Source: Eubacteriales bacterium | GTDB lineage: Bacteria > Bacillota > Clostridia > Tissierellales > Dethiosulfatibacteraceae | Assembly (NCBI GenBank): GCA_030694905.1 | Contig: JAUYTY010000211.1 | Location: 3,652 to 67,651, forward strand | DNA length: 64,000 nucleotides | Direction of reading: 5' to 3' | In this document: positions 1-51,925 of the stretch, one piece after another | Position numbering within the stretch: the stretch's first letter is position 1 | Layout of the letters: every line of letters starts with the position of its first letter | Notes under the pieces: model-generated | What the model was told of the DNA's origin: nothing | The model's input: only the letters and a program-made list of their open reading frames with translations | Database searches by the model: none | Made by a program: the position numbers and the translations under genes

Positions 1-816
1 GGCGTCCTTCAAATGTCTTTGGAACCTTTCTTCCAATCCCTCTTCGTTGATGATTCTGACAGATTCTTTCAGCGCCCAGATCAGATTGATGGGTGGCGTT
101 CCATAGTACTTCATCGGGTCATTCATAATCGGAAGCCATTTTTCAAAATCCAGGTATGAATCCGCTATGGTTTTCAGATTTTTTCTTCTTTCGATTGCTT
201 TTGGACCTGCCCAAATAATCGCCAGGCCCGGTGATACGCCAAATGCCTTCTGTGATGCGGTAAACAGTATATCTATCCCCATCTTTTTCAGGCTTTCTTT
301 TTCACCGGCTGTTGAACAGACGCCATCGACGATATATAGCGTGTCTTGAAACTGATTCAGCATCTCACCTATTTTTGCAATATCAGAGCGTGTGCCTGTG
401 GAGGTGTCAACATGTGTGACTGTTATGGCGTGGTAATGCTTTTCCTTTAGCTTTGCTTCAATTTGATCTATAGGAACTGCTTTGCCCCATTCAGATGACA
501 ATACATCTGTGTTGATTCCTCTTCTTTCAAATATATCTATGAATCTGTCTCCAAAATATCCGTGAGACACAACCAAAACATTATCGCCGCTCTTGACTGA
601 ATTGGCAACTGCCACTTCCATGGCCATAGTGCCTGTTCCTGATAGGACAAAGCACTCTTCGGCCTGCCACATATCTTTAAGATCTAGTACCAGCCCTTTG
701 AAATCCTTGACAAAATCAGCATCTTTAAAGGATACTGTCTCTCTTCCCATCTGGACCATGATACTGTTGACAGTAGGTGTCGGACCCGGTATCATGACTA
801 ATTTCTTGTTTTTCAT
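1..816 (-). CDS. Class V PLP aminotransferase (alanine-glyoxylate / serine-pyruvate aminotransferase family); 3' end cut by the window edge
   Basis: Hand translation from ATG (rc of 814..816): MKNKKLVMIPGPTPTVNSIMVQMGRETVSF... It continues without a stop to position 1 and contains the PLP-lysine context TASQKAF. It is absent from the ORF track because it is open-ended. Confidence 0.8.
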   Translation of the reverse strand, partial: MKNKKLVMIPGPTPTVNSIMVQMGRETVSFKDADFVKDFKGLVLDLKDMWQAEECFVLSGTGTMAMEVAVANSVKSGDNVLVVSHGYFGDRFIDIFERRGINTDVLSSEWGKAVPIDQIEAKLKEKHYHAITVTHVDTSTGTRSDIAKIGEMLNQFQDTLYIVDGVCSTAGEKESLKKMGIDILFTASQKAFGVSPGLAIIWAGPKAIERRKNLKTIADSYLDFEKWLPIMNDPMKYYGTPPINLIWALKESVRIINEEGLEERFQRHLKDA

Positions 817-866
817 TTTTTCTCCCTTCATGACGTATTCGCAAATATTCGCTTAAGCTCAGTTTT

Positions 867-906
867 TATCCGATGACCAACAGTGCTAAGACTCCCACTT
901 CTGTTG
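867..906 (-). repeat. Dispersed repeat copy A (core AAGTGGGAGTCTTAGCACTGTT read on the minus strand)
   Basis: The 22-nt core at 879..900 is identical to 43847..43868. The extended roughly 40 nt aligns with 58116..58151 on the opposite strand. Confidence 0.8.
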
Positions 907-1779
907 ATCGTATTCTTCTATGATTTTCAGTAAAGCTTCTTTTTTACCCTGTTCCAATGGAAGCAGTGGTCTTCTTGGAAAACCGCCTTTATAGCCCTTT
1001 TGATCAAGTGCTACCTTCAATCCGGGTATCCCATAGACACCAGTGACCATCTTATTGATCTCTATCATCTTCAGTTGAAGCGCTATCGCTTCCGCCAATT
1101 TGTTTTCTCGGTGCAGTTGCACAAGCTTGCAGCAGTCTTCAGGCAAACAATTTGCCAATGCCAAGGTAGCGCCTTTTGCTCCCAGACACAAGGCGGGTAA
1201 AAGATAGCCTGCATTTCCGACAAATACTGTGAAGTCCTTATCCACATCACGAATCATCTCACCAATGTGAACAATGTCGCCCGATGTATCCTTGATACCA
1301 ATGATATTCTTATTTTTTGATAATCGTGCAATCACTGATGATGTCATACTGATACCTGTGTTTCCAGGCATATTGTAAATCATTAGCGGTACATTGACAT
1401 TGTCGGCAACCTCTGTGAAGTATGTGAACAACACCTCATCATTCATAGCTTTCTTAAAATAGTTCGGTGGTAAAACAAGTACTGCGTCGGCTCCAGCCTG
1501 TGCTGCCTGATTGCTGAATTTGATGGTCTCTCTGGTTGACTCGCAGCTTGTTCCAACGATGATTTTTTTTCTCTTGTCAACTTTTTTTATAACATGGATC
1601 ATCAGCTCTATCTTTTCTTCCTGTGATAGAAATACAAACTCTCCATTTGACCCAAGCACCACCAGACCATCTAAATCGGTTGCAATCCATTTTTCAAGAT
1701 TATAGTCCATACTCTCGTAATCAATATCACCATTTTCTTTAAATGGTGTGATAATAGGTGTGTAGATACCTTTTAACAT
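886..1779 (-). CDS. DapA/DHDPS-NAL family pyruvate-dependent lyase (dihydrodipicolinate synthase-like aldolase)
   Basis: 297 aa. N-terminus GIYTPIITPF...DGLVVLGSNGEF is typical of the DHDPS/N-acetylneuraminate lyase family. It sits 19 nt downstream of the preceding gene. Confidence 0.8.
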   Translation of the reverse strand: MLKGIYTPIITPFKENGDIDYESMDYNLEKWIATDLDGLVVLGSNGEFVFLSQEEKIELMIHVIKKVDKRKKIIVGTSCESTRETIKFSNQAAQAGADAVLVLPPNYFKKAMNDEVLFTYFTEVADNVNVPLMIYNMPGNTGISMTSSVIARLSKNKNIIGIKDTSGDIVHIGEMIRDVDKDFTVFVGNAGYLLPALCLGAKGATLALANCLPEDCCKLVQLHRENKLAEAIALQLKMIEINKMVTGVYGIPGLKVALDQKGYKGGFPRRPLLPLEQGKKEALLKIIEEYDQQKWES

Positions 1780-1797
1780 GCAGTCCCTCCTTCATGA

Positions 1798-2988
1798 TTA
1801 TTTGATTTCTTTAAAAATTTTATCCATTCTATTTGCGGCTTCCTCTATTTTATCGTATGAATTTGAATAAGACAAGCGAATGCTGTCCGGTGACTCGAAT
1901 GCATCACCTGGAACTGTTGCCACAAGACCTTCTTCCAACAAAAGATTGGCCAGATCCATGGAGTCTTTTATGGTTTTTCCATTATAGGACTTCTGATAAA
2001 GCTTCGAGACATTGGGCAACAAATAAAACGCGCCTTCAGAGTTGATGCATGATACCCCGTTCATTTGATTTAACCGCCCCAACAGAAGATTTCTTCTCTT
2101 TTCAAATTCATCTCTCATGATATCAAGACTTTCTTGAGGACCTTCCAGCGCCTCTATGGCCGCCTTTTGAGTGATTGAATTCGCCGCATGGGTCATATGC
2201 CCCTGAATGGCGCTCATCGCTTTGATGATTTTTTCCGGGCCCGCCGCGTATCCAATTCGCCATCCCGTCATCGCATAGGCTTTGGAGAATCCATTTATTG
2301 TAATGGTTCTTTGATAGATATCGTCCGACAGGGAAGCAATCGATACATGCACAGCATCGTCATAAACCAATTTCTCATAAATCTCATCTGAAAAAATCAG
2401 AAAATCATTTTCAACCGCCAACCGTCCAAGCGCCTCCAGGGATTCTCTGCTGTAGACTGCTCCTGTGGGATTATTGGGCGTGTTAAGCATTATGCCTTTT
2501 GTCCTAGGACTCAAGGCTTTCTTAATATTGTCGATGTTTAGCTGATAACCATCTCTTTCATCGGTTTTAACGAAAACAGGAACTGCTCCAGATAATCTGA
2601 TGATTTCCTCGTAGCTTACCCAGCAAGGTGTCGGTAGAATTATTTCGTCACCTTCATTGCAAACTGTTAGCACAGCATTGTTCAAGCATTGCTTTGCTCC
2701 TGTTGAGACGATGATATTTTCCGGCCAATATTCAATCCCATTGTCATCTTTAAGTTTTTTGCATATGGATTGTCTCAACTCCAAAATGCCGTTTACCGTG
2801 ACGTATTTGGTAAACCCTTCATTGATGGCCTGTATAGCTGCTTCACATATGTTTCTCGGGGTTTCAAAATCAGGCTCGCCGACATTCAGGTCAATGACAT
2901 CTTTTCCTGATTTTTTCATTTTTGCCACTTTTGCTGTAAGCTCCACAGTGGCGGATGGCTTCATGTTTGCGGATCTTTGACTTAGCAT
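1798..2988 (-). CDS. Class I/II aminotransferase, aspartate-aminotransferase-like (paralog of 32086..33276)
   Basis: 396 aa with NVGEPDF, NTPNNPTGAVY and SKAYAMTGWRIGY motifs. The start overlaps the AOR stop (ATGCTAA). Confidence 0.85.
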   Translation of the reverse strand: MLSQRSANMKPSATVELTAKVAKMKKSGKDVIDLNVGEPDFETPRNICEAAIQAINEGFTKYVTVNGILELRQSICKKLKDDNGIEYWPENIIVSTGAKQCLNNAVLTVCNEGDEIILPTPCWVSYEEIIRLSGAVPVFVKTDERDGYQLNIDNIKKALSPRTKGIMLNTPNNPTGAVYSRESLEALGRLAVENDFLIFSDEIYEKLVYDDAVHVSIASLSDDIYQRTITINGFSKAYAMTGWRIGYAAGPEKIIKAMSAIQGHMTHAANSITQKAAIEALEGPQESLDIMRDEFEKRRNLLLGRLNQMNGVSCINSEGAFYLLPNVSKLYQKSYNGKTIKDSMDLANLLLEEGLVATVPGDAFESPDSIRLSYSNSYDKIEEAANRMDKIFKEIK

Positions 2989-5162
2989 AGATGTTTATTG
3001 ACGACTTCCAATACTTCCGGATAGTCTATTCCAAGTCTTTGAAGTGTTTCAGGCATTGGAACCGCGTTATTGGTCCAGCCTCGTCTATTGTACACCGCAT
3101 CCAAAAGCATCTCGTATTGGTTTTCTCTGTGTTTTCTTAGGATTCCCATTTTTTCTTCTATGGTTTTTCCCTTTATATCAAACCCAAGTTCCTTTAGCTG
3201 TTTGTCGTATCTTTCCATTCTTGATCTGTACTCAACTATCGTCACAGGTCCCACAGATCGATAAGGTATGGCATCATCTCTTCTAAGGCCTTTGCCCATT
3301 TTCAGATTGAAAACCTTCTGAAGGTTGTACACCCTCTCAGATTGAAGAACCAACTCGCTGACATGTTGCACATTTGCTCCAGTGACGCCATTGTATAGAT
3401 TGATATAGTTCTCTATATGCTCAGGTACCTTTGCCGGTTCATCGGTTTCCGCATTGTTGGCAGGTTCTATGTCATTCCAGGGCAGCTTGCACAGACCTAC
3501 CAGACTGAACCATGTCCTGAATAGAGGATAGAAATATAGCGCTTCCGCCTTATCCTCAAATGTCGGAATCTGGTTGTTTACCATATCCATGAATATCAGC
3601 CAGTTTTCATCATGCTGAGCCCCTTTGTTGGCTGTTCCATATCCGGCCTGTTGTGCGAGTGATTCCTTTGTGACGTACTCCGAATATTCCAATCCTTTGC
3701 ATTCCATTCCAATATCATTGAGATAATCGGCATCGATGCCGTATTGATCGACAAAAATCTCTTTCAGTTTCTTGACGCCCAATCCCGCCACTGTTCCAAA
3801 GCCTTCTCCTCTTGACATCTGATGAAGCAATTCAAGCTGTGCGGTCCAATTGCCAAAGTGAAGCTCAAGTCCTCCTGTAATGGCAACATCTATCAGATTT
3901 TCCTCAAAGCATTCCATAAGGAAGGCACAGGTGGTTCCAAACGAAATGGTATCAATGCCGTAGGTATCGCAGTAGAAATTGCATTCAAGAACCGCATGGG
4001 GATCATAAATACCGCAGTTGGTTCCAACACCGGCAGCCGTCTCATACTCCGGACCATCTATCAATACCTTGTGCCCTTTGTATGGACCTGTTTTTAGCTC
4101 GACATTGCTAACGCTTTTAGAGCATTGCATAGTACAGCCGTACCAGCATCCATCTGGAATTCCCTGTGTAAAGGTTTCCTGCCAATACTGTTGCCTCATT
4201 TTATAGGCATCCGGATGATAGCCATATCTGAAATTGTTAACCGGAACCAGATCATAATCATTCATCGCTTCCACAAGTCTTGTGGTTCCATTCAGCCTCA
4301 TGTTGGCCTGGCTGCCGTCGTTATCATGTAATTCTCTGTGAAGCCTTATGCCCGTTCTGGCTACCTTGTCATAATCGGCAACGTTGTTCATGTCTCCAGT
4401 CATACCGGGTTTTCTGACAACAACAGCCTTGATATTTTTATCCACAAAAACTGTCCCTATGCCACCTCTGCCTGCCTGCTTTAGTTTTGTGTGTTTTCTG
4501 TGTATATCGTAATATGAGAAGTTCAATATGCCAAAATTTGTATTGCCCGCCGCACTGCCTGCCGATATGATTGAAACATTCTTCTTATCATCTTCACTGA
4601 TTGAAAAAACATCCGTCAACACCTCTGCTAAAATATGACTGTCCTCGCAATCCCCCAAGTATTTTTCAAAGCTGATCATCCCATTTTCACCATCTATGAA
4701 GATGACAAGCTGAGTCTCTGATTTACCCTGTATTTCCAATGCATCAAATCCACATAGCTTGAAAAGGGGTCCAAAGTGACCGCCTACATTGCTGTCAATG
4801 GGAATATCTGTCAATGGCGATATGGTTGCCACATATGTTTTGCCTGATCCCGGATACTGCGTAATTCCGCCTATGGGTCCCTGGGCAATGACTATTTCGT
4901 TCTCTGGACTGTTCCATTTGGTGTCACTGTTTACAGCGTCCCAGAGCAGCTTCATGCCATATCCCCTACCGCCGGTGAACTTCTCTCGCATGTCAGAACT
5001 GACGGTTTTTATTTCAGCTTTTTTCTCACCGATATTAATGTATAATGTGCGATCGGCATAGCCTTTATCGATTTTTTTGGACTCAAATGGCGATTGTGCG
5101 ATCTGTTCTCTTTTATAGTCTTTTATTTGTGTCTCCAGTATTTCTTTATACTTGCAATCCAT
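2982..5162 (-). CDS. Aldehyde:ferredoxin oxidoreductase family protein (tungsten/molybdenum pterin enzyme), long form of about 726 aa
   Basis: AOR N-domain (FTGGRGYGMKLLWD), Cys cluster GCWYGCTMQCSK and YGIDTISFG motif. Start moved to the ATG at 5162, which follows CAGGAGGAAAAC; the track start at 5183 overlaps the ferredoxin gene. Confidence 0.85.
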   Translation of the reverse strand: MDCKYKEILETQIKDYKREQIAQSPFESKKIDKGYADRTLYINIGEKKAEIKTVSSDMREKFTGGRGYGMKLLWDAVNSDTKWNSPENEIVIAQGPIGGITQYPGSGKTYVATISPLTDIPIDSNVGGHFGPLFKLCGFDALEIQGKSETQLVIFIDGENGMISFEKYLGDCEDSHILAEVLTDVFSISEDDKKNVSIISAGSAAGNTNFGILNFSYYDIHRKHTKLKQAGRGGIGTVFVDKNIKAVVVRKPGMTGDMNNVADYDKVARTGIRLHRELHDNDGSQANMRLNGTTRLVEAMNDYDLVPVNNFRYGYHPDAYKMRQQYWQETFTQGIPDGCWYGCTMQCSKSVSNVELKTGPYKGHKVLIDGPEYETAAGVGTNCGIYDPHAVLECNFYCDTYGIDTISFGTTCAFLMECFEENLIDVAITGGLELHFGNWTAQLELLHQMSRGEGFGTVAGLGVKKLKEIFVDQYGIDADYLNDIGMECKGLEYSEYVTKESLAQQAGYGTANKGAQHDENWLIFMDMVNNQIPTFEDKAEALYFYPLFRTWFSLVGLCKLPWNDIEPANNAETDEPAKVPEHIENYINLYNGVTGANVQHVSELVLQSERVYNLQKVFNLKMGKGLRRDDAIPYRSVGPVTIVEYRSRMERYDKQLKELGFDIKGKTIEEKMGILRKHRENQYEMLLDAVYNRRGWTNNAVPMPETLQRLGIDYPEVLEVVNKHLC

Positions 5163-5175
5163 GTTTTCCTCCTGT

Positions 5176-5565
5176 CTACTCAAGATTTTCTATAAATATC
5201 GCGCTGGTCGGACAAACTGCGGCGCATTTTCCACAGGCAATGCATTTGCTTGGTTTTCTCTCACCTGTGAAGTAATGGATGGACAATGTGTCGCAAAAGC
5301 CAACGCAGGCATAACATTCTACGCATTTTTTTCTATTCAATGTTATGACGCCGTTTTTCGATATTGTCAAGGCTTGTGTGGGACATATGGTTGTACAATA
5401 ACCACATTGATTGCATACGTTAATATCGAATTTATCATTAGTGCTTTCTGTTATTCTGATAACCGATTTGTCTCCTGTTTCATCCTTGTAATAGGTTGTC
5501 GCGCATTCTACCATGCATTTTTTACAACCGATACAAAGCGCTTCATTCTTACTTAATACTTTCAT
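5176..5565 (-). CDS. Poly-[4Fe-4S] ferredoxin (four Cys-cluster motifs)
   Basis: 129 aa with CIGCKKCMVEC, CNQCGYCTTICP, CVECYACVGFC and CIACGKCAAVCP. It lies immediately upstream of the AOR gene. Confidence 0.85.
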   Translation of the reverse strand: MKVLSKNEALCIGCKKCMVECATTYYKDETGDKSVIRITESTNDKFDINVCNQCGYCTTICPTQALTISKNGVITLNRKKCVECYACVGFCDTLSIHYFTGERKPSKCIACGKCAAVCPTSAIFIENLE

Positions 5566-5598
5566 ATTCGAATCTCCTCGTAAATTGTCTTTTTTAAA

Positions 5599-6591
5599 TC
5601 ACAATTGCTGCAGTGCGGCTTCTCTTTCCAGGGACAAACCATATGATTGAGCTCCGTCAATTCCCTGGTGCCACGAAATACCGATTGCATCGGCAATATA
5701 ATAAGGATCTTCTTGATTGTACATGACATTTCTACCAAGCAATATCCCTCGGATATTGGTATTGATGCCGCGTTCCTTGACATACTCTTCCACGACTTCT
5801 ATGGCCTTGGTTTTTGCCTCATCGGGAACAACCAGAATTGAACAGGTTGTGGCATCGGTCACGGCTTTGTAATCATTGTTCAAAGGCACTTCAAGCCATT
5901 TTCGAGCTGATGTGTTTCCAAGTGCTGCAGCAACTCCGATCGTCTGCACCAATCTCTCTGTTGAGACTTCCAATGCGTATCCATTTTCAGTCTTTTTAAC
6001 GAACAGGCTTTCTATGAATATCGGCAGCTTGTTTTTTTCAGCGATATTGATTGTTTCGGAGCAGTATCTGATTGTTTTACCACTATCTTTGTCATCAGGA
6101 TCGATCCTGAACATGAATTTGACGCCATCCAGGTTCATTTCACTTAGCTTTTCCACAGTATAGCAGGTACACATATCATCCATTTCCCATGATGTGTTTT
6201 TAAGTCCACCACGGTTGACAGTCCCTATTAAAAGCTTGTTTTCAAGCATATCAACATTGTGCCTTTCTTTCATTATGCTATTTAGAATAAGCAGGTCTTC
6301 AATGATGTCGGCAGTCGCCTCTATTCCATCAACAAAAGAACTCATCAGCATCCTTGCAACCCTAGACAGATATTCGTGTCTGTTTCCCAACCCGATATTG
6401 TTGCCGTTATAGGCTGTTATCATCCTGGCATTATGATCCGCCGCCACCAGCACCAATTGGTTTTTGAACACTGGTTTTATCCTGGACTTAAGCTCTCTTG
6501 CGATTATTTCCGGTTCAAATGTCTTGATTTGGTTGATTTTATCATAACTATCCCTTGGTAAAAATTGCTTATAGTCAAATACCGACATCAA
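5599..6591 (-). CDS. TIM-barrel protein resembling class I aldolases (DeoC/LacD/FbaB-like); exact family uncertain
   Basis: 330 aa. LVLVAADHNARM and the later beta/alpha periodicity resemble DhnA/LacD-type aldolase-like barrels. Recognition is by eye only. Confidence 0.4.
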   Translation of the reverse strand: MMSVFDYKQFLPRDSYDKINQIKTFEPEIIARELKSRIKPVFKNQLVLVAADHNARMITAYNGNNIGLGNRHEYLSRVARMLMSSFVDGIEATADIIEDLLILNSIMKERHNVDMLENKLLIGTVNRGGLKNTSWEMDDMCTCYTVEKLSEMNLDGVKFMFRIDPDDKDSGKTIRYCSETINIAEKNKLPIFIESLFVKKTENGYALEVSTERLVQTIGVAAALGNTSARKWLEVPLNNDYKAVTDATTCSILVVPDEAKTKAIEVVEEYVKERGINTNIRGILLGRNVMYNQEDPYYIADAIGISWHQGIDGAQSYGLSLEREAALQQL

Positions 6592-6605: not shown

Positions 6606-7310
6606 TTATATTTTTCTTTTCAGTCCTCTTTTTTCATAATAGGCATCGGGAATATCTTTAGGATCCTTGTACAATGTCATCACGCATTTGCCGTCACTTC
6701 CCACTCCGGGCACATCCATGATGAAAAGGGGCCATCCAAACCACTCATACCATCCGAATTCCCACATTGTCGTGCAATTCAGGCAGTAGCACTGGAATCC
6801 TTTTTTATCATAACACCAGGTATGTGCCTCATCCGTTACCGCTACCGGGTCAGGCTGCTCTTTCACAAGATAGCCGCCGCTGTTGCATTTATCAAGGATG
6901 AAGGTGATCTTTTCATCGTCCTCTTCCCAGATTTGCTCATTGTCGTGAACCATCTGCCACAGGTTTGCCCTATTTTCCAAAAATCCTTCCAGCGGAAAAT
7001 CCTTGTAGGTTGCTTTTCCTGCGTCATAGGCACTGATCCAATCCTTAATGACAGGCGGATAAAATGTGGTCGCATATTCCTTCATGCATTCGAATATGGC
7101 TTCATCTGATGCGTTTTTCTTAAAGTGCGACAGTGTCAGATTAACCCATCTGACTGCAAAGTCGTGAAAATTTTGCTTGCCCGTCACATTCTTGCGATGT
7201 AGTTCGAGTGCTTTCTCCATATCACCCGCTTTGATAGCCGCTTCTAATTCATCAATGGTTCTTTTTGCATTGACATTGACAATCTGTTCCATTATAGGTG
7301 TTCGTTTCAT
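6606..7310 (-). CDS. Hypothetical protein with a Cys/Trp-rich C-terminal half; no family recognised
   Basis: Start set to MKRTPIMEQ (ATG rc of 7308..7310), preceded by GGAGGGAATACT. C-terminus: KCNSGG...WCYDKKGFQCYCLNCTTMWEFGWYEWFGWP...GKC. Confidence 0.6.
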   Translation of the reverse strand: MKRTPIMEQIVNVNAKRTIDELEAAIKAGDMEKALELHRKNVTGKQNFHDFAVRWVNLTLSHFKKNASDEAIFECMKEYATTFYPPVIKDWISAYDAGKATYKDFPLEGFLENRANLWQMVHDNEQIWEEDDEKITFILDKCNSGGYLVKEQPDPVAVTDEAHTWCYDKKGFQCYCLNCTTMWEFGWYEWFGWPLFIMDVPGVGSDGKCVMTLYKDPKDIPDAYYEKRGLKRKI

Positions 7311-7326: not shown

Positions 7327-8403
7327 TTATGATAAGCTTTTTTTATATGTTTTCCCGTCGTCTTCAACAGGGAATTGCACTTTTTTTCCTGTCATGCCTG
7401 AGATATAAATCGCCCTAATAAACTCAAGGGCTCTTCTGCCTTCGTGTCCGTCAATTTTTGGTTTTCTGTTGTTCTGGATTGCCTCAATGAAATCCTCAAT
7501 CTGCAGCTTATGCAGCTCGTAATTGACATAACCGGCCTTAGTGGCGGTATCTCCCGAATCGATTATCTCTTTTGTCAAATAATCATCCTCGTTCATTCCC
7601 TCGATTTTCCATTGGATTATCTTTTCCTCTTCCAGAATGATGGTTCCTTTTTCGCCATGTATCTCCAGTCTTCTAGGATATCCGGGCTTAATGGCTGTAG
7701 AGCTTACCACACTGCCGATAGCACCGTTCTTAAACTTGAAGATCGCATTAGCCATATCATCCACTTCAATATCATCGTGTATTGTGGTCATGTAGTCGCC
7801 GGACAGGCTTTCCACATCACCAGCAATAAACAGCATCAGATCTATAAAATGCACCGTTTGGCTGATCAGTGACCCGCCACCCTCGCCGGACCATGTACCC
7901 CGCCATTTTCCTGAGGCGTAGTACTCATCGCTTCTAAAGCTCTTCCCGATACAATCCACTGATAGAAGTCGACCTATTTTTCCGGAATCAATAGCGTCTT
8001 TAATGGTTAAAGCCTGTTTCATAAATCTATACATGAATATGACGCCAAGTGTAATCCCTTCTTTTTCACAAACGGCAATCATATTATCCGCTTCGATGAG
8101 ATTTGTTGCGATGGGTTTTTCGCAGATAATGTGCTTTTTCGACTTTGCAATATCCTTGACCATCTGTTCATGAAGGAAAGGTGGTGTGATGACGCACACG
8201 ACGTCAATGTCATCATTTTTCAACATTTCTTTATAGTCTGTGTAGACATACGGAATCTGGTATTCTTTTTTATATTGTTGGCATACGGCTTCATTCACAT
8301 CGCAGAATGCTATAATCTCTGCATTGTCTATGCTCTTTATTGCATTTGCACTCAAGGGGCCTGCCATTCCCCCGCCTATTAATGCAAATCTAGTTTTACC
8401 CAT
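7327..8403 (-). CDS. Gfo/Idh/MocA family NAD(P)-dependent oxidoreductase
   Basis: 358 aa with an N-terminal Rossmann motif (RFALIGGGMAG) and the EKP motif (ICEKPIA). Confidence 0.85.
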   Translation of the reverse strand: MGKTRFALIGGGMAGPLSANAIKSIDNAEIIAFCDVNEAVCQQYKKEYQIPYVYTDYKEMLKNDDIDVVCVITPPFLHEQMVKDIAKSKKHIICEKPIATNLIEADNMIAVCEKEGITLGVIFMYRFMKQALTIKDAIDSGKIGRLLSVDCIGKSFRSDEYYASGKWRGTWSGEGGGSLISQTVHFIDLMLFIAGDVESLSGDYMTTIHDDIEVDDMANAIFKFKNGAIGSVVSSTAIKPGYPRRLEIHGEKGTIILEEEKIIQWKIEGMNEDDYLTKEIIDSGDTATKAGYVNYELHKLQIEDFIEAIQNNRKPKIDGHEGRRALEFIRAIYISGMTGKKVQFPVEDDGKTYKKSLS

Positions 8404-8434: not shown

Positions 8435-10027
8435 TCAATCTATGTGTTTTTTTAATACAATACCCTTATATGCACCTGAATGGCAATCATCTCGAATGAC
8501 TATCCCACCGCCAATGATTACCAGCTTGATGCCCGAGGCGAACTGATTGTATCCTGTCGTCGAAGGACTCTCTTTGAAATCCTCTTTCGAGAAGACGGTA
8601 ATATCTGCTTTGAAGTCTTTTTTCAGAAGACCGCGTTTTTTAAGACCCAGCCGTTTGGCCGGCAATCCGGTGATTCGGTGGATTGCTTCCTGTAACGTCA
8701 ACAGTCCGGTATTGGATACATACTCGTCAAGAAACCTTGGAACCCATCCGTAGCAACCAGGTGACCACCTGATGTGTCTTAAAGGACCCTTGTCCGATAA
8801 CGACACCCCGTCGGATATCACACCTGCTTGCCCGAGTTTCAAAAAACTCGCAATGTTCTTTTTAGATTTTATTTTGCCCATCATCAATGCGCCAAACATA
8901 TCTGACCCTTCGGCAATCAACAAATCCATCATGGCATCAAAGGGATCAATATGCAGTGCGTTGCCTATTTTCTGGAAAGTCATTCCCTTGAACTCAGGTG
9001 ATTTTACCGTATGATACAATAGAATCTCATCCCATTTGTCATCTCTTATTAGCAGCCAAAATGGCTTTTTCTGGTTTCTGACACTGTCCCTGACAGACTT
9101 ATCCCTCAATAGCTTAGCAATCTGATCGGGTCTGTTCCTAAGTAGCTCATTGGGCAGTATGGCGGTCATGGTAGTCGGTCCCCACTCATACGGGATGACA
9201 TCACATGCCATATCCAGACTGCTGCCATAATGATGCATTCTGTCCAAAACCCATTCGGTAGCCTCTTCAGGGGCGCCATATTTTGGCACCGCATGAGATA
9301 TCTGTAGCCTGACACCTGTTTTATTTGCCGTGTCGAAAGCCTCTCCATAGCCCTTCTGATATTGCTCATCCCTATTTCTGACATGGGTGGCGTATAGGCC
9401 ATCATATCTTTTGACGATATCACATAGCCCGAAAATCTCTTTCCTGTCCGCACTATTCCCTGGGAAATACTCGAGCCCGGTGGAGAAACCAAATGATCCG
9501 CATTCCATGCTTTCTTCCAGTAGCCTTTTCATGCTTTGTATTTCGCTGCTTGAGGCTTCCCTATTCTCGAATCCCATCACATAGCTTCTGATGGCAGCAT
9601 GACCCGTTAGAGGAACTACATTGATGCCCAATGGTCTGTTCTGAAGATCATCAAAGTAGTCTTTCGAATTTTTCCATTCAGGCCTGTATCCTTCAACATG
9701 GCAGAAAACATTTCGCTTCAGGTGTTCCAGGCTTTTAAAAGGGGTGCAGGATAATCCGCAATTTCCAATTACCTCTGTTGTGACACCTTGTCTGACAAAG
9801 CTTTCAGCTTTTCCATCCAAAAGAAGCGTATAATCTGAATGGCTGTGCATATCAATAAAGCCAGGCGTGACGTATAAACCTTCCGCATCGAATGCTTCCT
9901 TGCTGATGGCATCGCCTAATAAACCGATTTCAACTATTCTGCCATCCTTGACAGCAATATCCAGTTTCTGTTCTGGTGAACCGGTGCCATCTATCACTTT
10001 CCCATTTAGAATAATCAGATCAAACAT
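8435..10027 (-). CDS. D-aminoacylase / N-acyl-D-amino-acid deacylase family amidohydrolase
   Basis: 530 aa. MFDLIILNGKVIDGTG...VTPGFIDMHSHSD is the typical N-terminus of the D-aminoacylase branch of the amidohydrolase superfamily. Confidence 0.75.
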   Translation of the reverse strand: MFDLIILNGKVIDGTGSPEQKLDIAVKDGRIVEIGLLGDAISKEAFDAEGLYVTPGFIDMHSHSDYTLLLDGKAESFVRQGVTTEVIGNCGLSCTPFKSLEHLKRNVFCHVEGYRPEWKNSKDYFDDLQNRPLGINVVPLTGHAAIRSYVMGFENREASSSEIQSMKRLLEESMECGSFGFSTGLEYFPGNSADRKEIFGLCDIVKRYDGLYATHVRNRDEQYQKGYGEAFDTANKTGVRLQISHAVPKYGAPEEATEWVLDRMHHYGSSLDMACDVIPYEWGPTTMTAILPNELLRNRPDQIAKLLRDKSVRDSVRNQKKPFWLLIRDDKWDEILLYHTVKSPEFKGMTFQKIGNALHIDPFDAMMDLLIAEGSDMFGALMMGKIKSKKNIASFLKLGQAGVISDGVSLSDKGPLRHIRWSPGCYGWVPRFLDEYVSNTGLLTLQEAIHRITGLPAKRLGLKKRGLLKKDFKADITVFSKEDFKESPSTTGYNQFASGIKLVIIGGGIVIRDDCHSGAYKGIVLKKHID

Positions 10028-10051: not shown

Positions 10052-11347
10052 TTATTTATCGGTTAGACACCAGTCGATTATAATGGAAGCCAGCATCTTT
10101 ATGCCGTCAACAAATTCCTTTTCATCGACCCACTCTGTCCAATCCGCACCGTAAAGCCCGCCGCATAAGGGGCCGATTCCTGCAGTCGGTGTATTGCCGT
10201 AAACGATTGGATGGCGTATATCGCTTGCACCGTGATATTGATAGATGAAGCTTTCAACGCCATTGACGCTTGAAATGTTTTTTTCTATTGTCCTGACAAT
10301 ATCCGAATCCTTCGATACCATTGCAGGTGTCGCTCTAAGGTTGAGTATCTCGATTTCAGGAGGATTGACGGACAGCCAGTCGTCACCGGCAAAACGCTTA
10401 TGAAAATAATCCTTTAATTCTTCCAGTACCGAATATATTGTTTCTTCTTCACCAAAATACAGTCTTGATTTGATTGTGTATGTCATGGGATCCCTGCCAA
10501 CTTTGATACCGGCTTCAGCTGTGCTGATATTCAGCTTGGTCTTAGGTGTGCCGGCATAAGTTCCCTCTGTGAACAGAATTCTTTCTCTTCTAGCCTTGTC
10601 CCAATCCGACATGGCTTCTACCACCATTGAACCTTTTTTGATGGCGTTGACTTCACTGTTATCCAGTTCGTCATTCTCCCTGCCTTCAGATCCTTTTATT
10701 GTGACTGAAAAATCAACGGTACCCATGGAATAGATTTTAACCTCTGTGTAGCCATGGCCGGTTTCAGCAGGATGCAGATAGATACCGCCATCCGCCTTAT
10801 AACCTTTGGCTATGGCACTCAACGTTCCAGCCGAGCCGCCTCGTTTTCCAAGAACACTCATCACTATCAGGTCTCCGTCAAGGTCTGTCTCTTTTAAAAC
10901 GGCCTCTACTGCCAGCATGATGGTTGCCATCCCTGATTTGTCGTCAGCTATTCCATGGCCGTATAGCCTGTTGTTTACTCTCTTGAGATCGTATACACTC
11001 GCAATATCAGCTGATTCGCAGGTTTCAGTATCAATATGGGCAAACAGCATCAGTGATTTGCCCTGTCCCTTGCCTGATTTTATACCCACAAGATTATAGG
11101 CTCTCTCATCCACTTTTTCCCCTTCATTCAATGGGCAATAGTCTGCGTAATCCTCGACTCCTGCCGTGTTTCCGGAGAATTTATCTATATTCAAGCCAAG
11201 CTCTTCCATCTTTTGCAATATCAATTCCTGGGCAAGCGTGGGTTGACCGTTCTCGCTAGGAAGTCTCACCAAGGAACCTAAAAATTTGATTGCTTTATCA
11301 TTGTCTATTTTGGAACTGACTTTTTCTTTCAATTTTTCTTTATTCAT
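10052..11347 (-). CDS. M20 family metallopeptidase (ArgE/DapE/ACY1/CPG2-like)
   Basis: HIDTE and GHGIADDKSG motifs. Start moved to MNKEKLKEK (ATG rc of 11345..11347). Confidence 0.8.
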   Translation of the reverse strand: MNKEKLKEKVSSKIDNDKAIKFLGSLVRLPSENGQPTLAQELILQKMEELGLNIDKFSGNTAGVEDYADYCPLNEGEKVDERAYNLVGIKSGKGQGKSLMLFAHIDTETCESADIASVYDLKRVNNRLYGHGIADDKSGMATIMLAVEAVLKETDLDGDLIVMSVLGKRGGSAGTLSAIAKGYKADGGIYLHPAETGHGYTEVKIYSMGTVDFSVTIKGSEGRENDELDNSEVNAIKKGSMVVEAMSDWDKARRERILFTEGTYAGTPKTKLNISTAEAGIKVGRDPMTYTIKSRLYFGEEETIYSVLEELKDYFHKRFAGDDWLSVNPPEIEILNLRATPAMVSKDSDIVRTIEKNISSVNGVESFIYQYHGASDIRHPIVYGNTPTAGIGPLCGGLYGADWTEWVDEKEFVDGIKMLASIIIDWCLTDK

Positions 11348-11470
11348 TCTATTCCAGTCCTTCCTTATTGTAATCGTGCTAAAATCAAAATCATATCTGC
11401 GCATCATTTATCAAACCTGTCCTGCGACAGTTCTTGGAACTTTTAATCCGTTCTCATTTCTGTTATTAAC

Positions 11471-11522
11471 AGTCAGGGCATAGACAAGGTTTGGGTGGAT
11501 AGTATGCCTATGCCCCGACTGA
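11471..11522 (-). terminator. Long stem-loop (13 of 14 bp) between the binding-protein gene and the M20 gene; weak terminator or mRNA stabiliser
   Basis: CAGTCAGGGCATAG ... CTATGCCCCGACTG inverted repeat. No clear U-tract follows it on the minus strand. Confidence 0.4.
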
Positions 11523-11563
11523 AATCAACAGGGTTTATCGTTTAATTAACTAAAAAAAACTTA

Positions 11564-13261
11564 TTATTCTGCGAAGTCTGCGAATATAAAGTCAGGATCC
11601 GGCGATCTGATTCCACCTTTAAAAATGTTGATCAGGTCATCTCTCTTGGCCCAGGCACCACCTGCGTTGTAAACAGGTACGAGTGGTCCTTCATCCATCA
11701 GACGCACTAAAGCCTCATATAAGAGTTCTGCTCTCTTCTCTGGATCTACTTCTGAATCTGATGCTGCAATCAGCGCATCATATTCTGCTGAAGCGTATCT
11801 TGTGTCATTCAATCCGTTTTCCGAAGTCAATCTTGTCAAGTATCCTATTGGATCAGGATTGGATGATGCAATACCTGCAAACACGATGTCATAATCTCCG
11901 GCTGTCATCATGTCCCATCTTTGTCTTGACTGTACCAATGTAATATCGAGGTTCAATCCCAGATTTGTGAACAGCATGTCCTGAATAATCTCACCCATCA
12001 ATCTTCTATCCGGTCTGTCATCAGTCAGGTACTTGATTGTTGGGATATCTGCTCTTGCCACGCCAAGCTCTTCGAGTGCTTTGGCAAGATATTCCTCAGC
12101 TTTGACCAAATCTGCGGTTTTCGGATAGAATTCATTGTTGAATTTCTCTCCCCACAATTCCCCATTGGTTACCATAGCTTTTGGAACGTAGCTAAGCGCT
12201 GGTATGGATCCATCATTAAGAGCTGCTTTGATAAATAGTTCTCTGTCTATTGCATGGCCGATTGCTTTTCTGAAATTGGCATTTGCTAGAAACTTGGCTG
12301 CGGGACTAGTGCTATCAAGATTAAACTCCATCCACATAGTGGTACCAGAGGTTGTATAAATAGCTCTTCCCAATCCATCCATTGCAGGAATCAAGTCCTT
12401 AGGTATATCAGCATAGTCAAGCTCGCCATTTTGGAACATCAGGATTGCTGTGTTTCCGTCTCCTATGACATAAAGCTCTATTCTGTCAAGCTTTATAGCA
12501 TCCTTATTCCAGTAGTTTTCATTCTTTTCAAAGATAAATCTGTCTTCCGGTTTCCACTCAACCAGAACAAAAGGTCCGTTACCGATAAGCTTGTCTGTAG
12601 AAGTAGCAAATTCCACACCATATTTTTCAGTGAAGTCTTTTCTGTTTGGATTGAACAGATTTGATGAAACATAGTCTAGAAAATATGGATAAGGTTTTTC
12701 CAAGGTGTATTCTACTGTGTAGTCATCGAGTGCTTTAACGCCTACCATAGTGGGATCCGTCACTTCGCCTTTGTTGAATGCCTCACCGTTTTTCAGGACA
12801 AATCCATAAAACGCCATGCTTCCGTTAGGAGCCGGTGGGGTAGGGTCAATCAGCCTGATTGCGCCATATACATAATCATGGGCTGTCAAAGGTTGTCCAT
12901 CTGACCATTTCGCATCCTTTCTCATGTGGAAAGTGTAGACCAGTCCATCTGCTGAGACTTCCCAGGTTTCAGCGCCACCAGGTATAAACTCAAAATTATG
13001 ATTTCTGATGATCGGATCATATATCAATGATCTTACCTGTGAAGCATTGACGTCCTGACCGGCTTGCGTGTCAAGACTGGCTGGCTCGGCAGCTAATCGA
13101 CCTCTAAGGACTTTTGGCTCTGCCGGCGGCGCTTGCGTTTCCGTCGGACCTGCTGTTGTAGCAGGAGCTGCCGTAGTTTGTTGACCCGGTGTCGTGCATG
13201 CGGAAAGCACAAATGCCAGTACCAGAATCAACACTAGAATTGATTTCAGATTCTTTTTCAT
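11564..13261 (-). CDS. ABC transporter substrate-binding lipoprotein, family 5 (peptide/nickel; OppA/DppA-like)
   Basis: Start set to MKKNLKSILVLILVLAFVLSAC (lipobox LSAC), preceded by AAGAGGAGAA. Pro/Thr/Ala-rich linker followed by a family-5 SBP body. Confidence 0.85.
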   Translation of the reverse strand: MKKNLKSILVLILVLAFVLSACTTPGQQTTAAPATTAGPTETQAPPAEPKVLRGRLAAEPASLDTQAGQDVNASQVRSLIYDPIIRNHNFEFIPGGAETWEVSADGLVYTFHMRKDAKWSDGQPLTAHDYVYGAIRLIDPTPPAPNGSMAFYGFVLKNGEAFNKGEVTDPTMVGVKALDDYTVEYTLEKPYPYFLDYVSSNLFNPNRKDFTEKYGVEFATSTDKLIGNGPFVLVEWKPEDRFIFEKNENYWNKDAIKLDRIELYVIGDGNTAILMFQNGELDYADIPKDLIPAMDGLGRAIYTTSGTTMWMEFNLDSTSPAAKFLANANFRKAIGHAIDRELFIKAALNDGSIPALSYVPKAMVTNGELWGEKFNNEFYPKTADLVKAEEYLAKALEELGVARADIPTIKYLTDDRPDRRLMGEIIQDMLFTNLGLNLDITLVQSRQRWDMMTAGDYDIVFAGIASSNPDPIGYLTRLTSENGLNDTRYASAEYDALIAASDSEVDPEKRAELLYEALVRLMDEGPLVPVYNAGGAWAKRDDLINIFKGGIRSPDPDFIFADFAE

Positions 13262-13315
13262 AAATTTTCTCCTCTTAATTATTTTTTTTATGATCAAATG
13301 TTGTTTTTTCAACAT

Positions 13316-14293
13316 CTAATTAACTAGGTGACATGCCACAAAATGGCCAGGACTTACCTCTCTCAATATAGGTGCTTCTTCCGAGCAATCACCGGACGCA
13401 TGAGGGCATCTGTTCTTGAATTTGCAGCCCGGAGGCGTGTTGATCGGGCTGGGTACTTCTCCTTGCAGCAGCATCCTTTGTCTATTGGCTGATAGAATTG
13501 GATCTGCAATCGGTATGGCAGAAAGCAAGGACTGTGTGTATGGATGCAGTGGATTTTTATACAAATCGTTGCTCTCAGTCAGTTCCACCACAGAACCTAG
13601 ATACATTACCGCAACTCTGTCTGAAATATGCTTCACCATACTCAAATCATGGGCGATAAACAGATAGGTCAAGCCAAACTCCCTTTGCAGCCTCATCAGC
13701 AGATTGACAATCTGTGACTGCACCGAGACATCCAGAGCTGAAATAGGCTCATCACAGACGATGAATTTTGGCTCGATGGCCAATGCTCTGGCAATTCCGA
13801 TTCTCTGTCGCTGCCCCCCTGAGAATTCGTGGGGAAACCGATTTATATGCTCTTTGTTCAATCCTACCAGGTTCAGAAGCTCAAAAACCCGATTGGTTCT
13901 ATCCTTTTGTTTGTATAGATTATGGATTACCATGCCCTCGGCTATGATTTCTCCTGTTGTCATCCGTGCATCAAGGGATGTGTAGGGATCTTGAAATATC
14001 ATTTGCATTTCTCTTGTTATCCCCTTGTAATCCTTTTTACTGTAATGAGAGATGTCTTTGCCTTCAAAAATGACTTGACCTTCTGTCTGTTGATAAATCC
14101 TATTCACAACACGACCAAGCGTGGTCTTGCCGCAGCCTGATTCTCCTACCAATCCCAAGGTTTCACCTTTATTGATGTAGAAGCTTACGTCATCAACTGC
14201 CTTTAGAATTCTACCCCTGCTCATGGAAAAATACTTTTTAATGTTGTTGATTTCAACCAATTTCTCAAAATTATTCAAGGGTTTCACCTCCAT
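13316..14293 (-). CDS. Peptide ABC transporter ATP-binding protein (OppF/DppF-like)
   Basis: Walker A GESGCGKTT, signature SGGQRQR and the C-terminal oligopeptide-type extension. Start chosen at MEVKPLNN. Confidence 0.85.
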   Translation of the reverse strand: MEVKPLNNFEKLVEINNIKKYFSMSRGRILKAVDDVSFYINKGETLGLVGESGCGKTTLGRVVNRIYQQTEGQVIFEGKDISHYSKKDYKGITREMQMIFQDPYTSLDARMTTGEIIAEGMVIHNLYKQKDRTNRVFELLNLVGLNKEHINRFPHEFSGGQRQRIGIARALAIEPKFIVCDEPISALDVSVQSQIVNLLMRLQREFGLTYLFIAHDLSMVKHISDRVAVMYLGSVVELTESNDLYKNPLHPYTQSLLSAIPIADPILSANRQRMLLQGEVPSPINTPPGCKFKNRCPHASGDCSEEAPILREVSPGHFVACHLVN

Positions 14294-15302: not shown

Positions 15303-15310
15303 CGATATAC

Positions 15311-16258: not shown

Positions 16259-16275
16259 GTTTTTTCACCTCAAAA

Positions 16276-17199: not shown

Positions 17200-17225
17200 G
17201 TTCACATCTCCTGAAATTCAACGTA

Positions 17226-18536: not shown

Positions 18537-18560
18537 TTCGCATTCTCCTTTTTTATTTGC

Positions 18561-19958: not shown

Positions 19959-19969
19959 ATTATACTCCT

Positions 19970-21220: not shown

Positions 21221-21242
21221 GGCATCATCGACTCACCTTTCA

Positions 21243-21264
21243 TTATTATATTGTAATTATATTA
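21243..21264. promoter_or_regulatory. AT-rich 22-nt motif copy 1 (TTATTATATTGTAATTATATTA), upstream of the peptidase/transporter operon
   Basis: Near-identical to 22057..22078, which lies upstream of the GntR gene. Candidate shared promoter or GntR operator. Confidence 0.35.
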
Positions 21265-21399
21265 TTGATATATCACATAATGGCATAAATGCTGTTGATT
21301 ATTTTCTCACGACTTGATCTTATTATTGTGTCGAAGTGCATGAGTTTATATCTGTTTGTTTTATTTTTAACAAGTTAATGCATAAAAAATTATCTTATA

Positions 21400-22056: not shown

Positions 22057-22078
22057 TTATTATATTTGTAATATATTA
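22057..22078. promoter_or_regulatory. AT-rich 22-nt motif copy 2 (TTATTATATTTGTAATATATTA), upstream of the GntR gene
   Basis: See 21243..21264. Confidence 0.35.
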
Positions 22079-22135
22079 CTAATATAATAAACTAAATAAT
22101 ATTTAATTTCAATCTATTTTTAAAAAATAATCAAT

Positions 22136-22184
22136 AAAAAAAAGGTGCATTTTATAGCCTGTTGATTGAGCTATTAAATGCACC
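22136..22184 (-). terminator. Rho-independent terminator of trpB
   Basis: Minus strand reads GGTGCATTTAATAGC-loop-GCTATAAAATGCACC followed by TTTTTTTT. Confidence 0.8.
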
Positions 22185-51918: not shown

Positions 51919-51925
51919 TGATTGA

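Follow-up and report, generated by a model that had tools for sequence, protein, structure and literature searches.

In animals, hydroxyproline is degraded through PRODH2, ALDH4A1, GOT2, HOGA1 and AGXT. A bacterial locus whose gene order AOR, AspAT, HOGA, AGXT mirrors the ALDH4A1-GOT2-HOGA1-AGXT part of this pathway was found in a 64,000-nucleotide stretch of DNA from an Eubacteriales bacterium (GenBank assembly GCA_030694905.1, contig JAUYTY010000211.1, positions 3,652 to 67,651), referred to here as the window. The locus is transcribed in the order ferredoxin (WorS), AOR-family aldehyde oxidoreductase (WorL, or AOR), aspartate aminotransferase (AspAT), lyase of the dihydrodipicolinate synthase/N-acetylneuraminate lyase (DHDPS/NAL) superfamily and class V aminotransferase. 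The window differs from the animal pathway in having no PRODH2-like flavoenzyme and in that a ferredoxin-linked AOR would stand in place of ALDH4A1; its genes for a GFO/IDH/MocA-family dehydrogenase (GFO), a cysteine-rich protein and a Cgl0159-type enzyme have no animal counterpart, and the host is an anaerobic bacterium. The tungsten-type AOR probably takes the place of the NAD-dependent aldehyde dehydrogenase in a breakdown route that resembles that of hydroxyproline and ends in pyruvate and glycine, and we hold with moderate confidence that its aldehyde comes from the genes upstream of it and not from the lyase.

Two other pathways bear comparison. The bacterial LhpABCG pathway resembles the window in its use of a DHDPS-superfamily enzyme; it consists of an epimerase, a D-hydroxyproline dehydrogenase, a DHDPS-family pyrroline-4-hydroxy-2-carboxylate deaminase and, for the aldehyde oxidation that comes next, a 2-oxoglutarate semialdehyde (KGSA) dehydrogenase. 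However, neither an epimerase nor a D-hydroxyproline dehydrogenase is present in the window, the lyase possesses the residues of a HOGA and not those of a deaminase, its score against the NCBIfam KdgD-type model is low, and the two aminotransferases would lack a role; an LhpC-type deaminase, one of three templates offered by a first-pass annotation of the window, is thus not favoured. In the archaeal non-phosphorylative Entner-Doudoroff branch, a 2-keto-3-deoxygluconate (KDG) aldolase of the DHDPS/NAL superfamily acts before an AOR that oxidises glyceraldehyde. The central idea of the first-pass annotation, in which the lyase sets free an aldehyde that then serves as substrate of the AOR, follows the same logic of a DHDPS-superfamily pyruvate aldolase combined with an AOR that replaces an NAD-dependent aldehyde dehydrogenase. 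The window departs from the archaeal branch in that its lyase is of the HOGA and not the KDG aldolase type, the aldehyde should be glyoxylate, and the conserved partner of the AOR is not the lyase.

A classification of tungsten-type oxidoreductases published in 2026 gives a defined physiological role for five of 92 clades (PMC13328260). Class II tungsten oxidoreductases (WOR) are composed of WorL and WorS, the latter a small subunit that carries four [4Fe-4S] clusters; two such enzymes have been characterised so far (Putumbaka et al. 2026, PMC13328260). ASOR/WOR5 of Pyrococcus furiosus and GOR of Caldicellulosiruptor bescii resemble the window pair in their large subunit with AFOR_N and AFOR_C domains and an adjacent four-cluster small subunit; the WorL of the window is longer, and its context is amino-acid and peptide catabolism, not sulfonates or glycolysis. 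Alignment with the AOR of P. furiosus (PfAOR) shows that WorL keeps T243, E313, Y427 and H448, and that three of its four [4Fe-4S] cysteines align with those of PfAOR, the first being offset by one residue to give Cx3Cx3C instead of Cx2Cx3C. WorL is about 120 aa longer, with an N-terminal extension and insertions; its score with WOR5 is only 119 bits, and AORs give 177-180 bits. WorS carries four CxxCxxCxxxC motifs in 129 aa. In its domains, catalytic residues and adjacent four-cluster subunit the pair fits the Class II WorLS type; WorL is predicted to be a tungsten (or molybdenum) pyranopterin enzyme, with ferredoxin as its likely acceptor.

The five genes and the type of the lyase

All five genes are present on the minus strand, at the coordinates stated beforehand. 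They comprise worS (5176-5565; 129 aa, multiple Fer4 matches), worL (2982-5162; 726 aa, AFOR_N 157 bits, AFOR_C 314 bits), the gene of a class Ib AspAT (1798-2988; 396 aa, Aminotran_1_2 268 bits), that of the lyase (886-1779; 297 aa, DHDPS 218 bits) and that of an AGXT/BhcA-type class V aminotransferase (1-816; Aminotran_5), which the window edge cuts to the N-terminal 272 of about 380 codons. They had been described as partly overlapping; this holds for one junction, where the AOR stop and the AspAT ATG overlap by 7 nt, whereas the others show gaps of 13 nt (ferredoxin-AOR), 18 nt (AspAT-lyase) and 69 nt (lyase-class V aminotransferase). One public annotation gives AspAT a shorter start (373 aa), which would abolish the overlap. 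Counted from its ATG the AOR has 726 aa, and this exact protein is already on record; the mechanical open reading frame (ORF) extends to a TTG at 5183, equivalent to 733 aa. The exact sequence of the lyase had no match in protein records. The earlier remark that the locus has no NAD-type aldehyde dehydrogenase holds for the operon proteins scanned, among which Pfam found no Aldedh-family protein (four ABC permease/ATPase ORFs lay outside the scan). A 73-aa ORF (5562-5783, minus strand, in another frame) overlaps the 3′ end of the Cgl0159-type gene, matches no family and is probably not a gene.

Among solved structures the lyase comes closest to human HOGA1, to which it is 39% identical and with which it scores 218 bits; the best DapA reaches 154 bits, YagE 143 and NanA 105. 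HOGA is distinguished from DapA by Ser77-Asn78 in place of Thr44-Thr45, Asn173 in place of Arg138 and Ser198 in place of Ala163 (Riedel et al., PMC3188589). Arg138 of DapA binds aspartate semialdehyde, while HOGA1 employs Lys196 for the Schiff base, Tyr168 for the proton relay, Tyr140 from the neighbouring subunit and Ser198 as a contact to the substrate 4-hydroxyl (PMC3188589). The corresponding pairs of lyase and HOGA1 residues are S44/S77, N45/N78, Y107/Y140, Y135/Y168, N140/N173, K163/K196 and T165/S198. The first two of these lie in the loop GSNGE (residues 43-47), a motif found likewise in related loci of other genomes (designated L001, L003, L091 and L092), N140 is carried by the motif YNMPGNTG at the position of DapA Arg138, and Thr165 (in KDT) sits at the position of HOGA1 Ser198. 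Neither Thr44-Thr45 nor Arg138 of DapA is present in the alignment, Ser-Asn and Asn being found instead. Judged by its sequence, the lyase is a HOGA1-type aldolase and not a DapA. It is predicted to cleave 4-hydroxy-2-oxoglutarate (HOG) to pyruvate and glyoxylate; that its aldehyde should be glyoxylate follows from its match to the residues that bind the 4-hydroxyl and the 5-carboxylate of HOG, with Thr standing for the Ser198 contact.

Biosynthetic DapA, placed here by chance, was nevertheless weighed, as was a reversed diaminopimelate route feeding aspartate semialdehyde to the AOR (a further template of the first-pass annotation). With the NCBIfam dapA equivalog TIGR00674 (cut-off 206.15) the lyase reaches 206.4 bits, and it is because of this marginal pass that many of its homologs carry the source name 4-hydroxy-tetrahydrodipicolinate synthase; furthermore, a homoserine-dehydrogenase-like gene adjoins the lyase ortholog in L102. 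The dapA score is, however, below that for the HOGA1 relative, which is itself 64 bits above that for any solved DapA, the residues at positions 44, 45 and 138 of DapA are replaced as described above, and Pfam scans of the window proteins showed no dapB, asd or ddh nearby. Both forms of the DapA proposal appear very remote. The archaeal KDG aldolase model of NCBIfam gave 134 bits with a cut-off of 390. A metagenome scan with the lyase returned three loci only.

The class V aminotransferase is most similar among solved structures to serine-pyruvate (157 bits) and alanine-glyoxylate (155 bits) aminotransferases; its best NCBIfam match is BhcA, under the cut-off of that model. The pyridoxal phosphate (PLP) lysine motif SQK is visible in its translation, and a full-length ortholog of 380 aa in L091 is 93% identical to the window fragment. 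Its fold, its glyoxylate- and pyruvate-using relatives and the PLP lysine are those expected of a putative alanine- or serine-glyoxylate aminotransferase (AGXT/SGAT type). The best solved relatives of the AspAT are AspATs (up to 363 bits, aligned from residue 2), and its translation contains the motif SKAYAMTGWR. The template in which an AspAT is followed by a HOGA-type and an AGXT-type enzyme therefore gains support from the HOGA1 score, the HOGA residues and, as described below, the AGXT-like neighbour of the lyase in five of seven loci.

Genomic partners of the oxidoreductase and the lyase

A genome scan turned up relatives of the AOR with 57-63% identity in 80 species, which belong to the Firmicutes, Bacteroidales, Chloroflexi and other phyla. 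The four-cluster ferredoxin gene is the only one that universally adjoins them, with a homolog directly upstream in at least 37 related loci. A Cgl0159-type gene is adjacent to this ferredoxin-AOR pair in four independent loci, namely the window, L005, L094 and L096/L097, the AORs of the last three being 74%, 64% and 61% identical to that of the window; L005 and L096 have the trio without the lyase. In 22-23 other loci, from about 18 distinct genomes, the ferredoxin-AOR pair lies directly downstream of a unit encoding Fer2_4, Pyr_redox_2, Fe-S/BFD and DAO-family subunits, and these AORs are 59-65% identical to that of the window (tblastn). In Firmicutes (L008-L035 and L086-L090) this proline dehydrogenase (ProDH)-like unit consists of six or seven genes including those of the ferredoxin and an AOR of about 720 aa, as at L086 6124-12178; it is often preceded by a sigma-54 activator and sometimes includes a small BFD protein. 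At 309 bits, chain B of PDB 1Y56 is the best solved relative of the DAO-family subunit, well ahead of sarcosine oxidase beta at 169 bits. The PDB entry labels this chain 'sarcosine oxidase', and the structure is one which we take to be the L-proline dehydrogenase complex of Pyrococcus horikoshii. The P. horikoshii complex is thus related to the DAO subunit found upstream of ferredoxin and AOR in about 18 genomes together with Pyr_redox_2, Fer2_4 and Fe-S/BFD subunits; it has no counterpart in the window. An AOR tied to such an L-proline-dehydrogenase-like complex was not described in the literature searched, the one paper that joined both terms being unrelated.

The stable partner of the AOR is a Cgl0159-type gene or a ProDH-like complex, not the lyase. 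When 83 AORs are placed in a neighbour-joining tree, those linked to Cgl0159-type genes occur in two places, each beside ProDH-linked ones, and a single AOR clade thus swaps between the two kinds of partner. Since the Cgl0159-linked and ProDH-linked AORs interleave in this way, both partners probably deliver similar aldehydes, of the 1-pyrroline-5-carboxylate (P5C) or glutamate semialdehyde type. The ProDH-ferredoxin-AOR unit itself suggests a ferredoxin-linked oxidation of P5C or glutamate semialdehyde, perhaps electronically coupled to the oxidation of proline.

These partners count against the idea that an aminotransferase forms a 4-hydroxy-2-oxo acid, the lyase splits it to pyruvate and an aldehyde, and the AOR oxidises this aldehyde with ferredoxin. 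The genes concerned are adjacent and co-directional, no NAD-type aldehyde dehydrogenase was seen among the operon proteins scanned, L094 again pairs the lyase with an AOR, and the combination of archaeal KDG aldolase and AOR provides a precedent. Yet the same AOR subclade does without a lyase in L005, in L096 and in the approximately 18 genomes in which it is linked to ProDH-like genes, and the AOR precedes the aminotransferase and the lyase in the order of transcription. Furthermore, the glyoxylate expected from the lyase in the first template is already accounted for by the adjacent AGXT-type enzyme. The idea is therefore quite improbable.

The lyase has a stable partner of its own, the AGXT-type aminotransferase. 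An AGXT/BhcA-like gene lies next to the lyase gene or one gene away in five of seven loci (the window, L003, L091, L094 and L102; none stands beside it in L001/L002 and L092), and because of this association glyoxylate can be accounted for without the AOR. In L003, L091 and L102 the lyase and AGXT-type genes are found without an AOR. Two conserved modules can be distinguished: module A, consisting of GFO, the Cys-rich protein, the Cgl0159-type enzyme, WorS and WorL, and module B, consisting of AspAT, the HOGA1-type aldolase and the AGXT-type aminotransferase. The metagenomic cluster L094 holds the same 11 gene families as the window (10 enzymes and a GntR regulator) in a different order. Read along L094, with identities to the window, the genes are those of the lyase (48%; motif YNMPANAG, likewise HOGA-type), an AspAT-like protein (38%), an AGXT-like protein (31%), an amidohydrolase (52%), an M20 protein (37%), GFO (72%), the Cys-rich protein (73%), the Cgl0159-type enzyme (55%), the ferredoxin (50%) and the AOR (64%); next come a ThiS-like gene and then GntR (43%), and a peptide-type ABC transporter closes the array. 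The changed order and the uneven identities (31-73%) therefore indicate selection on the gene set and not one inherited block, and the two modules are probably functionally linked.

The alternative is that the modules are functionally independent and merely share a transcript, no metabolite passing between them. The Cgl0159-type, ferredoxin and AOR genes would then, together with GFO, the Cys-rich protein and the deacylases, degrade one compound, while module B would dispose of 4-hydroxyglutamate/HOG or of glyoxylate. Each set is indeed found alone (Cgl0159-ferredoxin-AOR in L005 and L096, lyase and AGXT-like genes in L003, L091 and L102), and the close relatives L091 and L001 keep the lyase without the 20-kb block that precedes it in the window. 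This reading is opposed by the regrouping of the 11 families in L094, by the overlap of the AOR stop with the AspAT start, by the 18-nt AspAT-lyase gap and by the age of that junction; we consider it somewhat unlikely. L001 shares 82% nucleotide identity with the window and is without the block (window 1792-22195), but upstream of its lyase gene (L001 9904-10000, compare window 1780-1876) the 3′ end of AspAT survives as a degenerate stretch of about 95 nt. Because of this remnant the AspAT-lyase junction is ancestral and not a recent accident. A recent insertion of the 20-kb block, which is absent from both L091 and L001, was considered and rejected on the same grounds, L001 having retained the degenerate 3′ end.

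The DNA around the lyase gene is a hot spot of rearrangement. What comes after that gene in L001 and L002 is homologous to window 43841-43966, where the window has the class V aminotransferase. The closest relative is L091, with a lyase of 94% identity. In place of the block, L091 299-8609 carries genes for a sigma-54 activator, a 467-aa protein without assignment, an Fe-ADH, a protein like HpaB/AbfD and an acetyl-CoA transferase, a set that looks like one of the 4-hydroxybutyrate type; a terminator-like hairpin then precedes the lyase gene. In L102 10001-13190 (Clostridiaceae bacterium 35-E11, CP121688) the lyase and class V orthologs are 63% and 66% identical to those of the window, a homoserine-dehydrogenase-family gene lies between them and a PucR regulator in front.

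Sets of GFO, Cys-rich and Cgl0159-type genes were also found without an AOR, in L098 and L100, where they are accompanied by an orthologous GntR gene and a P5C-reductase-family gene. The latter follows the GntR gene directly in L098, and in L100 it follows the genes of a glycyl radical enzyme and its activase. P5C reductase would in these loci provide an alternative fate for the pyrroline or semialdehyde. The glycyl radical enzyme of L100 resembles the N-methyl-4-hydroxyproline dehydratase HpyG (PDB 8ID1, 1221 bits); its identification as HypD was rejected (495 bits). At L100 11832-16083 the GFO-Cys-rich-Cgl0159 set thus stands beside hydroxyproline-derivative metabolism.

The remainder of the operon

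The five genes form the promoter-distal end of an operon in which 19 genes, the first of them a GntR gene, run in one direction on the minus strand over about 22 kb (window 1 to about 22,110). Next to worS lies the gene of the Cgl0159-type class I (Schiff-base) aldolase-fold enzyme (5599-6588, minus strand), identified by PF22649 (189 bits, threshold 27) and PDB 3FOK (136 bits). Its alignment-based AlphaFold model (pLDDT 91.5) superposes on 3FOK with TM-scores of 0.81/0.91; the next folds are 2-amino-3,7-dideoxy-D-threo-hept-6-ulosonate (ADH) synthase of Methanocaldococcus jannaschii, archaeal class IA fructose-bisphosphate (FBP) aldolases, LsrF and LacD. ADH synthase (MJ0400) and the FBP aldolases, the closest characterised folds, gave TM-scores of about 0.62/0.75 at a sequence identity of 15-16%; a probable Schiff-base lysine is common to them and the Cgl0159-type enzyme, whereas a shared type of substrate with ADH synthase, at this identity, is only putative. 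ADH synthase uses aspartate semialdehyde as a substrate, forming a C-C bond to it. Given the fold, and because all of 19 homologs keep Lys158 and seven arginines, the Cgl0159-type protein is predicted to be a Schiff-base enzyme that acts on an anionic carbonyl compound. The Cgl0159 family was not mentioned in the literature searched.

The gene of the Cys-rich protein (6606-7310, minus strand; 234 aa) is always immediately downstream of the GFO gene (window, L094, L098 and L100). The protein is conserved in the three other loci with 64-75% identity, carries the motifs CNSGG and FQCYCLNCTTMWEFGWY.WFGWPLFIMDVP, and matches no Pfam or NCBIfam family even at E = 10; its single-sequence AlphaFold model (pLDDT 49) is unusable. 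A 216-aa protein of L096 was considered as a homolog and rejected, the two proteins being unrelated. The GFO dehydrogenase (7327-8403, minus strand) is predicted to be NAD(P)-dependent; it has three GFO_IDH_MocA Pfam domains, is 63-72% identical in L094, L098 and L100, and finds its best NCBIfam matches in IolG and sugar 3-dehydrogenases, all under cut-off.

Two putative deacylases follow the GFO gene on the map. The first is a D-aminoacylase-family amidohydrolase (8435-10027, minus strand; Amidohydro_3), whose solved relatives are D-aminoacylase (188 bits), N-acyl-D-glutamate deacylase (180) and the carbohydrate de-N-acetylase PpOngB (175) and whose ortholog in L094 is the 52% identical protein mentioned above. 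The second is an M20 deacylase or peptidase of the ArgE/DapE family (10052-11407, minus strand; Pfam Peptidase_M20, with NCBIfam PRK06915 and PRK06837 below cut-off), with orthologs in L094 (37%) and L098 (46%). An Opp/Dpp-type ABC importer (11564-17205, minus strand) comprises a binding protein (11564-13315; SBP_bac_5 280 bits, OppA-like by NCBIfam), two ATPases (13316-15302) and two permeases (15311-17205), the ATPases and permeases being assigned from their translations alone. A strong stem-loop without a T-run (CAGTCGGGGCATAGGCA...TGTCTATGCCCTGACTG, window 11470-11525) lies between the binding-protein and M20 genes and may be an mRNA-stabilising or attenuating element. Three peptidase genes complete the set (17226-21220, minus strand): a divergent M24 protein (17226-18536), PepV (18561-19958; 506 bits against an NCBIfam cut-off of 435) and a second divergent M24 protein (19970-21220). 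Both M24 proteins match Pfam Peptidase_M24 at E of about 1e-12 and have no NCBIfam assignment.

The first gene of the operon encodes a GntR/FCD-family regulator (21400-22023, minus strand; GntR and FCD Pfam domains), orthologs of which (43-63% identical) adjoin Cgl0159 or AOR genes in L005, L094, L098 and L100. Upstream of it lies an AT-rich 34-bp palindrome (22057-22090), a candidate operator of two 17-nt arms that are 94% complementary and have no spacer. A 40-nt direct repeat of 78% identity to the palindrome, upstream of the first peptidase gene (21237-21276), is a second candidate operator, and the palindrome 17-mer is commoner than in any of 100 shuffles. The palindrome, a promoter-like site at 22112-22084 and the trpB hairpin terminator at 22144-22184 mark the 5′ boundary of the operon. 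Gaps within it measure at most 33 nt except for the 69 nt between the lyase and class V genes, the 179 nt that separate GntR from the first peptidase gene, and the space between the binding-protein and M20 genes, which is 156-216 nt according to the start chosen; no intergenic terminator was predicted in the array. Rfam revealed no riboswitch tied to the operon, its only hits being a T-box leader (23446-23683, minus strand) before the stand-alone trpB (22194-23369) and a thiamine pyrophosphate (TPP) riboswitch (51817-51924, minus strand) before an NMT1/THI5-like ABC transporter. A RACo-type corrinoid reductive activase (23834-25591, plus strand) is also encoded, with no recognisable corrinoid protein or methyltransferase adjacent to it; the ORF that adjoins it (25428-26213) belongs to no family.

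The proposed pathway and its implications

We infer all substrates, the order of the reactions and the physiological inducer from what was observed, namely gene identities, signature residues, operon structure and gene neighbourhoods. The operon would serve an imported peptide-like or N-acylated amino compound, from which the peptidases and deacylases would free an unusual amino compound. GFO would oxidise a secondary alcohol to a ketone, and the Cgl0159-type enzyme, helped or preceded by the Cys-rich protein, would convert the ketone to the aldehyde that is the substrate of the AOR. WorL would oxidise this aldehyde to the acid and pass two electrons through the four WorS clusters to ferredoxin. 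The AOR would thereby occupy the place of P5C dehydrogenase (ALDH4A1), with 4-hydroxyglutamate semialdehyde (3-hydroxy-P5C) as its most likely substrate and glutamate or aspartate semialdehyde as alternatives. Its product would be an acidic amino acid, which AspAT would convert to its 2-oxo acid; in module B, 4-hydroxyglutamate would give HOG, then pyruvate and glyoxylate, and the class V aminotransferase would turn glyoxylate into glycine, possibly with 4-hydroxyglutamate as amino donor. The model as a whole, in which the AOR oxidises an upstream semialdehyde and AspAT, the HOGA-type lyase and the AGXT-type enzyme then yield pyruvate and glycine, is put forward tentatively, at a little under even confidence.

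A semialdehyde of the glutamate family is favoured as the substrate of the AOR because sister AORs have ProDH-like partners, because P5C-reductase genes accompany the AOR-free Cgl0159 sets and because the AOR and AspAT genes are translationally coupled. The retention of the aldehyde-oxidising residues in the AOR and the position of ADH synthase as the nearest characterised fold to the Cgl0159-type enzyme support the model as well. Several points weigh against it. A tblastn search of the window with the ProDH-like subunits, and Pfam scans that covered most of its large ORFs as far as about 53 kb, gave no DAO, Pyr_redox_2 or Pro_dh homolog and no proline or hydroxyproline dehydrogenase, leaving the source of 4-hydroxyglutamate semialdehyde unexplained. 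The lyase has Thr in place of HOGA1 Ser198, and the corresponding S198T change in human HOGA1 keeps kcat and raises Km seven-fold (PMC3188589). The Cgl0159-type enzyme could be a true aldolase that releases an unrelated aldehyde. The modules occur singly (L005 and L096 without module B; L003, L091 and L102 without an AOR) and can thus work independently. The P5C-reductase link is confined to two loci, the aminotransferases of L094 are at 31-38% identity doubtful orthologs of the window enzymes, and the model has no explanation for the homoserine-dehydrogenase-like gene that separates the lyase and AGXT-like genes of L102. Finally, the amidohydrolase is nearly as close to a sugar-acid de-N-acetylase as to D-aminoacylase, which makes an amino-sugar-acid substrate possible.

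Were the operon to act on an N-acylated amino-sugar acid, or on a polyhydroxy amino acid similar to one, deacylation and oxidation to a keto compound by GFO would be followed by cleavage by the Cgl0159-type enzyme into a ketone fragment and an aldehyde for the AOR, and the aminotransferases and lyase would handle the leftover amino or oxo-acid fragment. This fits the 175 bits of the amidohydrolase against PpOngB, the inositol and sugar 3-dehydrogenases among the best matches of GFO, and the sugar-type ABC transporter that lies upstream in L100. It is also in keeping with the Cgl0159 fold, nearest to sugar-phosphate class I aldolases and ADH synthase, and with the invariant arginines, which suggest an anionic substrate. 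Conversely, the operon encodes neither a kinase nor a glycosidase nor a sugar isomerase, its transporter and five hydrolases are peptide-type proteins (PepV passing its cut-off), and the ProDH-like and P5C-reductase associations would be left unexplained. An amino-sugar acid is decidedly unlikely.

The two-module model has a more specific version, in which hydroxyproline is oxidised strictly anaerobically and without a flavin, through 4-oxoproline. Peptidases would release 4-hydroxyproline, and GFO would oxidise its 4-hydroxyl with NAD+ to 4-oxoproline. The Cgl0159-type enzyme, with or without the Cys-rich protein, would then tautomerise 4-oxoproline to 3-hydroxy-P5C, that is, 4-hydroxyglutamate semialdehyde, by a 1,2-carbonyl shift of the Heyns/Amadori type. 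WorLS would oxidise the semialdehyde to 4-hydroxyglutamate with reduction of ferredoxin, and AspAT, the HOGA-type lyase and the AGXT-type enzyme would complete the route to pyruvate and glycine. 4-Oxoproline is an alpha-amino ketone whose 1,2-tautomer is 3-hydroxy-P5C, the product of hydroxyproline dehydrogenase, so that a GFO-type 4-dehydrogenase together with a Schiff-base isomerase would stand in for the flavoenzyme and do away with its need for a high-potential acceptor. The literature searched offered no precedent for a bacterial catabolic 4-oxoproline route and no combination of an AOR with hydroxyproline, and this version is considered unlikely.

The locus can be read as a ferredoxin-linked version, so far uncharacterised, of a pathway whose type is known, composed of a mis-annotated HOGA1/AGXT pair, a WorLS clade without a known role and two families of unknown function. 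The WorLS clade, with large subunits of about 720 aa that are 57-65% identical over Firmicutes, Bacteroidales and Chloroflexi, gains a testable role in amino-acid catabolism, namely the oxidation of amino-acid semialdehydes with ferredoxin instead of NAD. Functions are also hinted at for bacterial HOGA1/AGXT pairs mis-annotated as DapA, for the Cgl0159 family and for the family-less Cys-rich protein. If the hydroxyproline version is true, the ProDH-paired AOR clade of many Firmicutes would be a ferredoxin-dependent P5C dehydrogenase, and the pairing of ProDH with AOR could combine a high-potential and a low-potential step. The operon would then provide a further anaerobic route for an abundant collagen-derived amino acid, beside the glycyl-radical HypD and HplG routes, and would yield reduced ferredoxin and glycine for Stickland metabolism.

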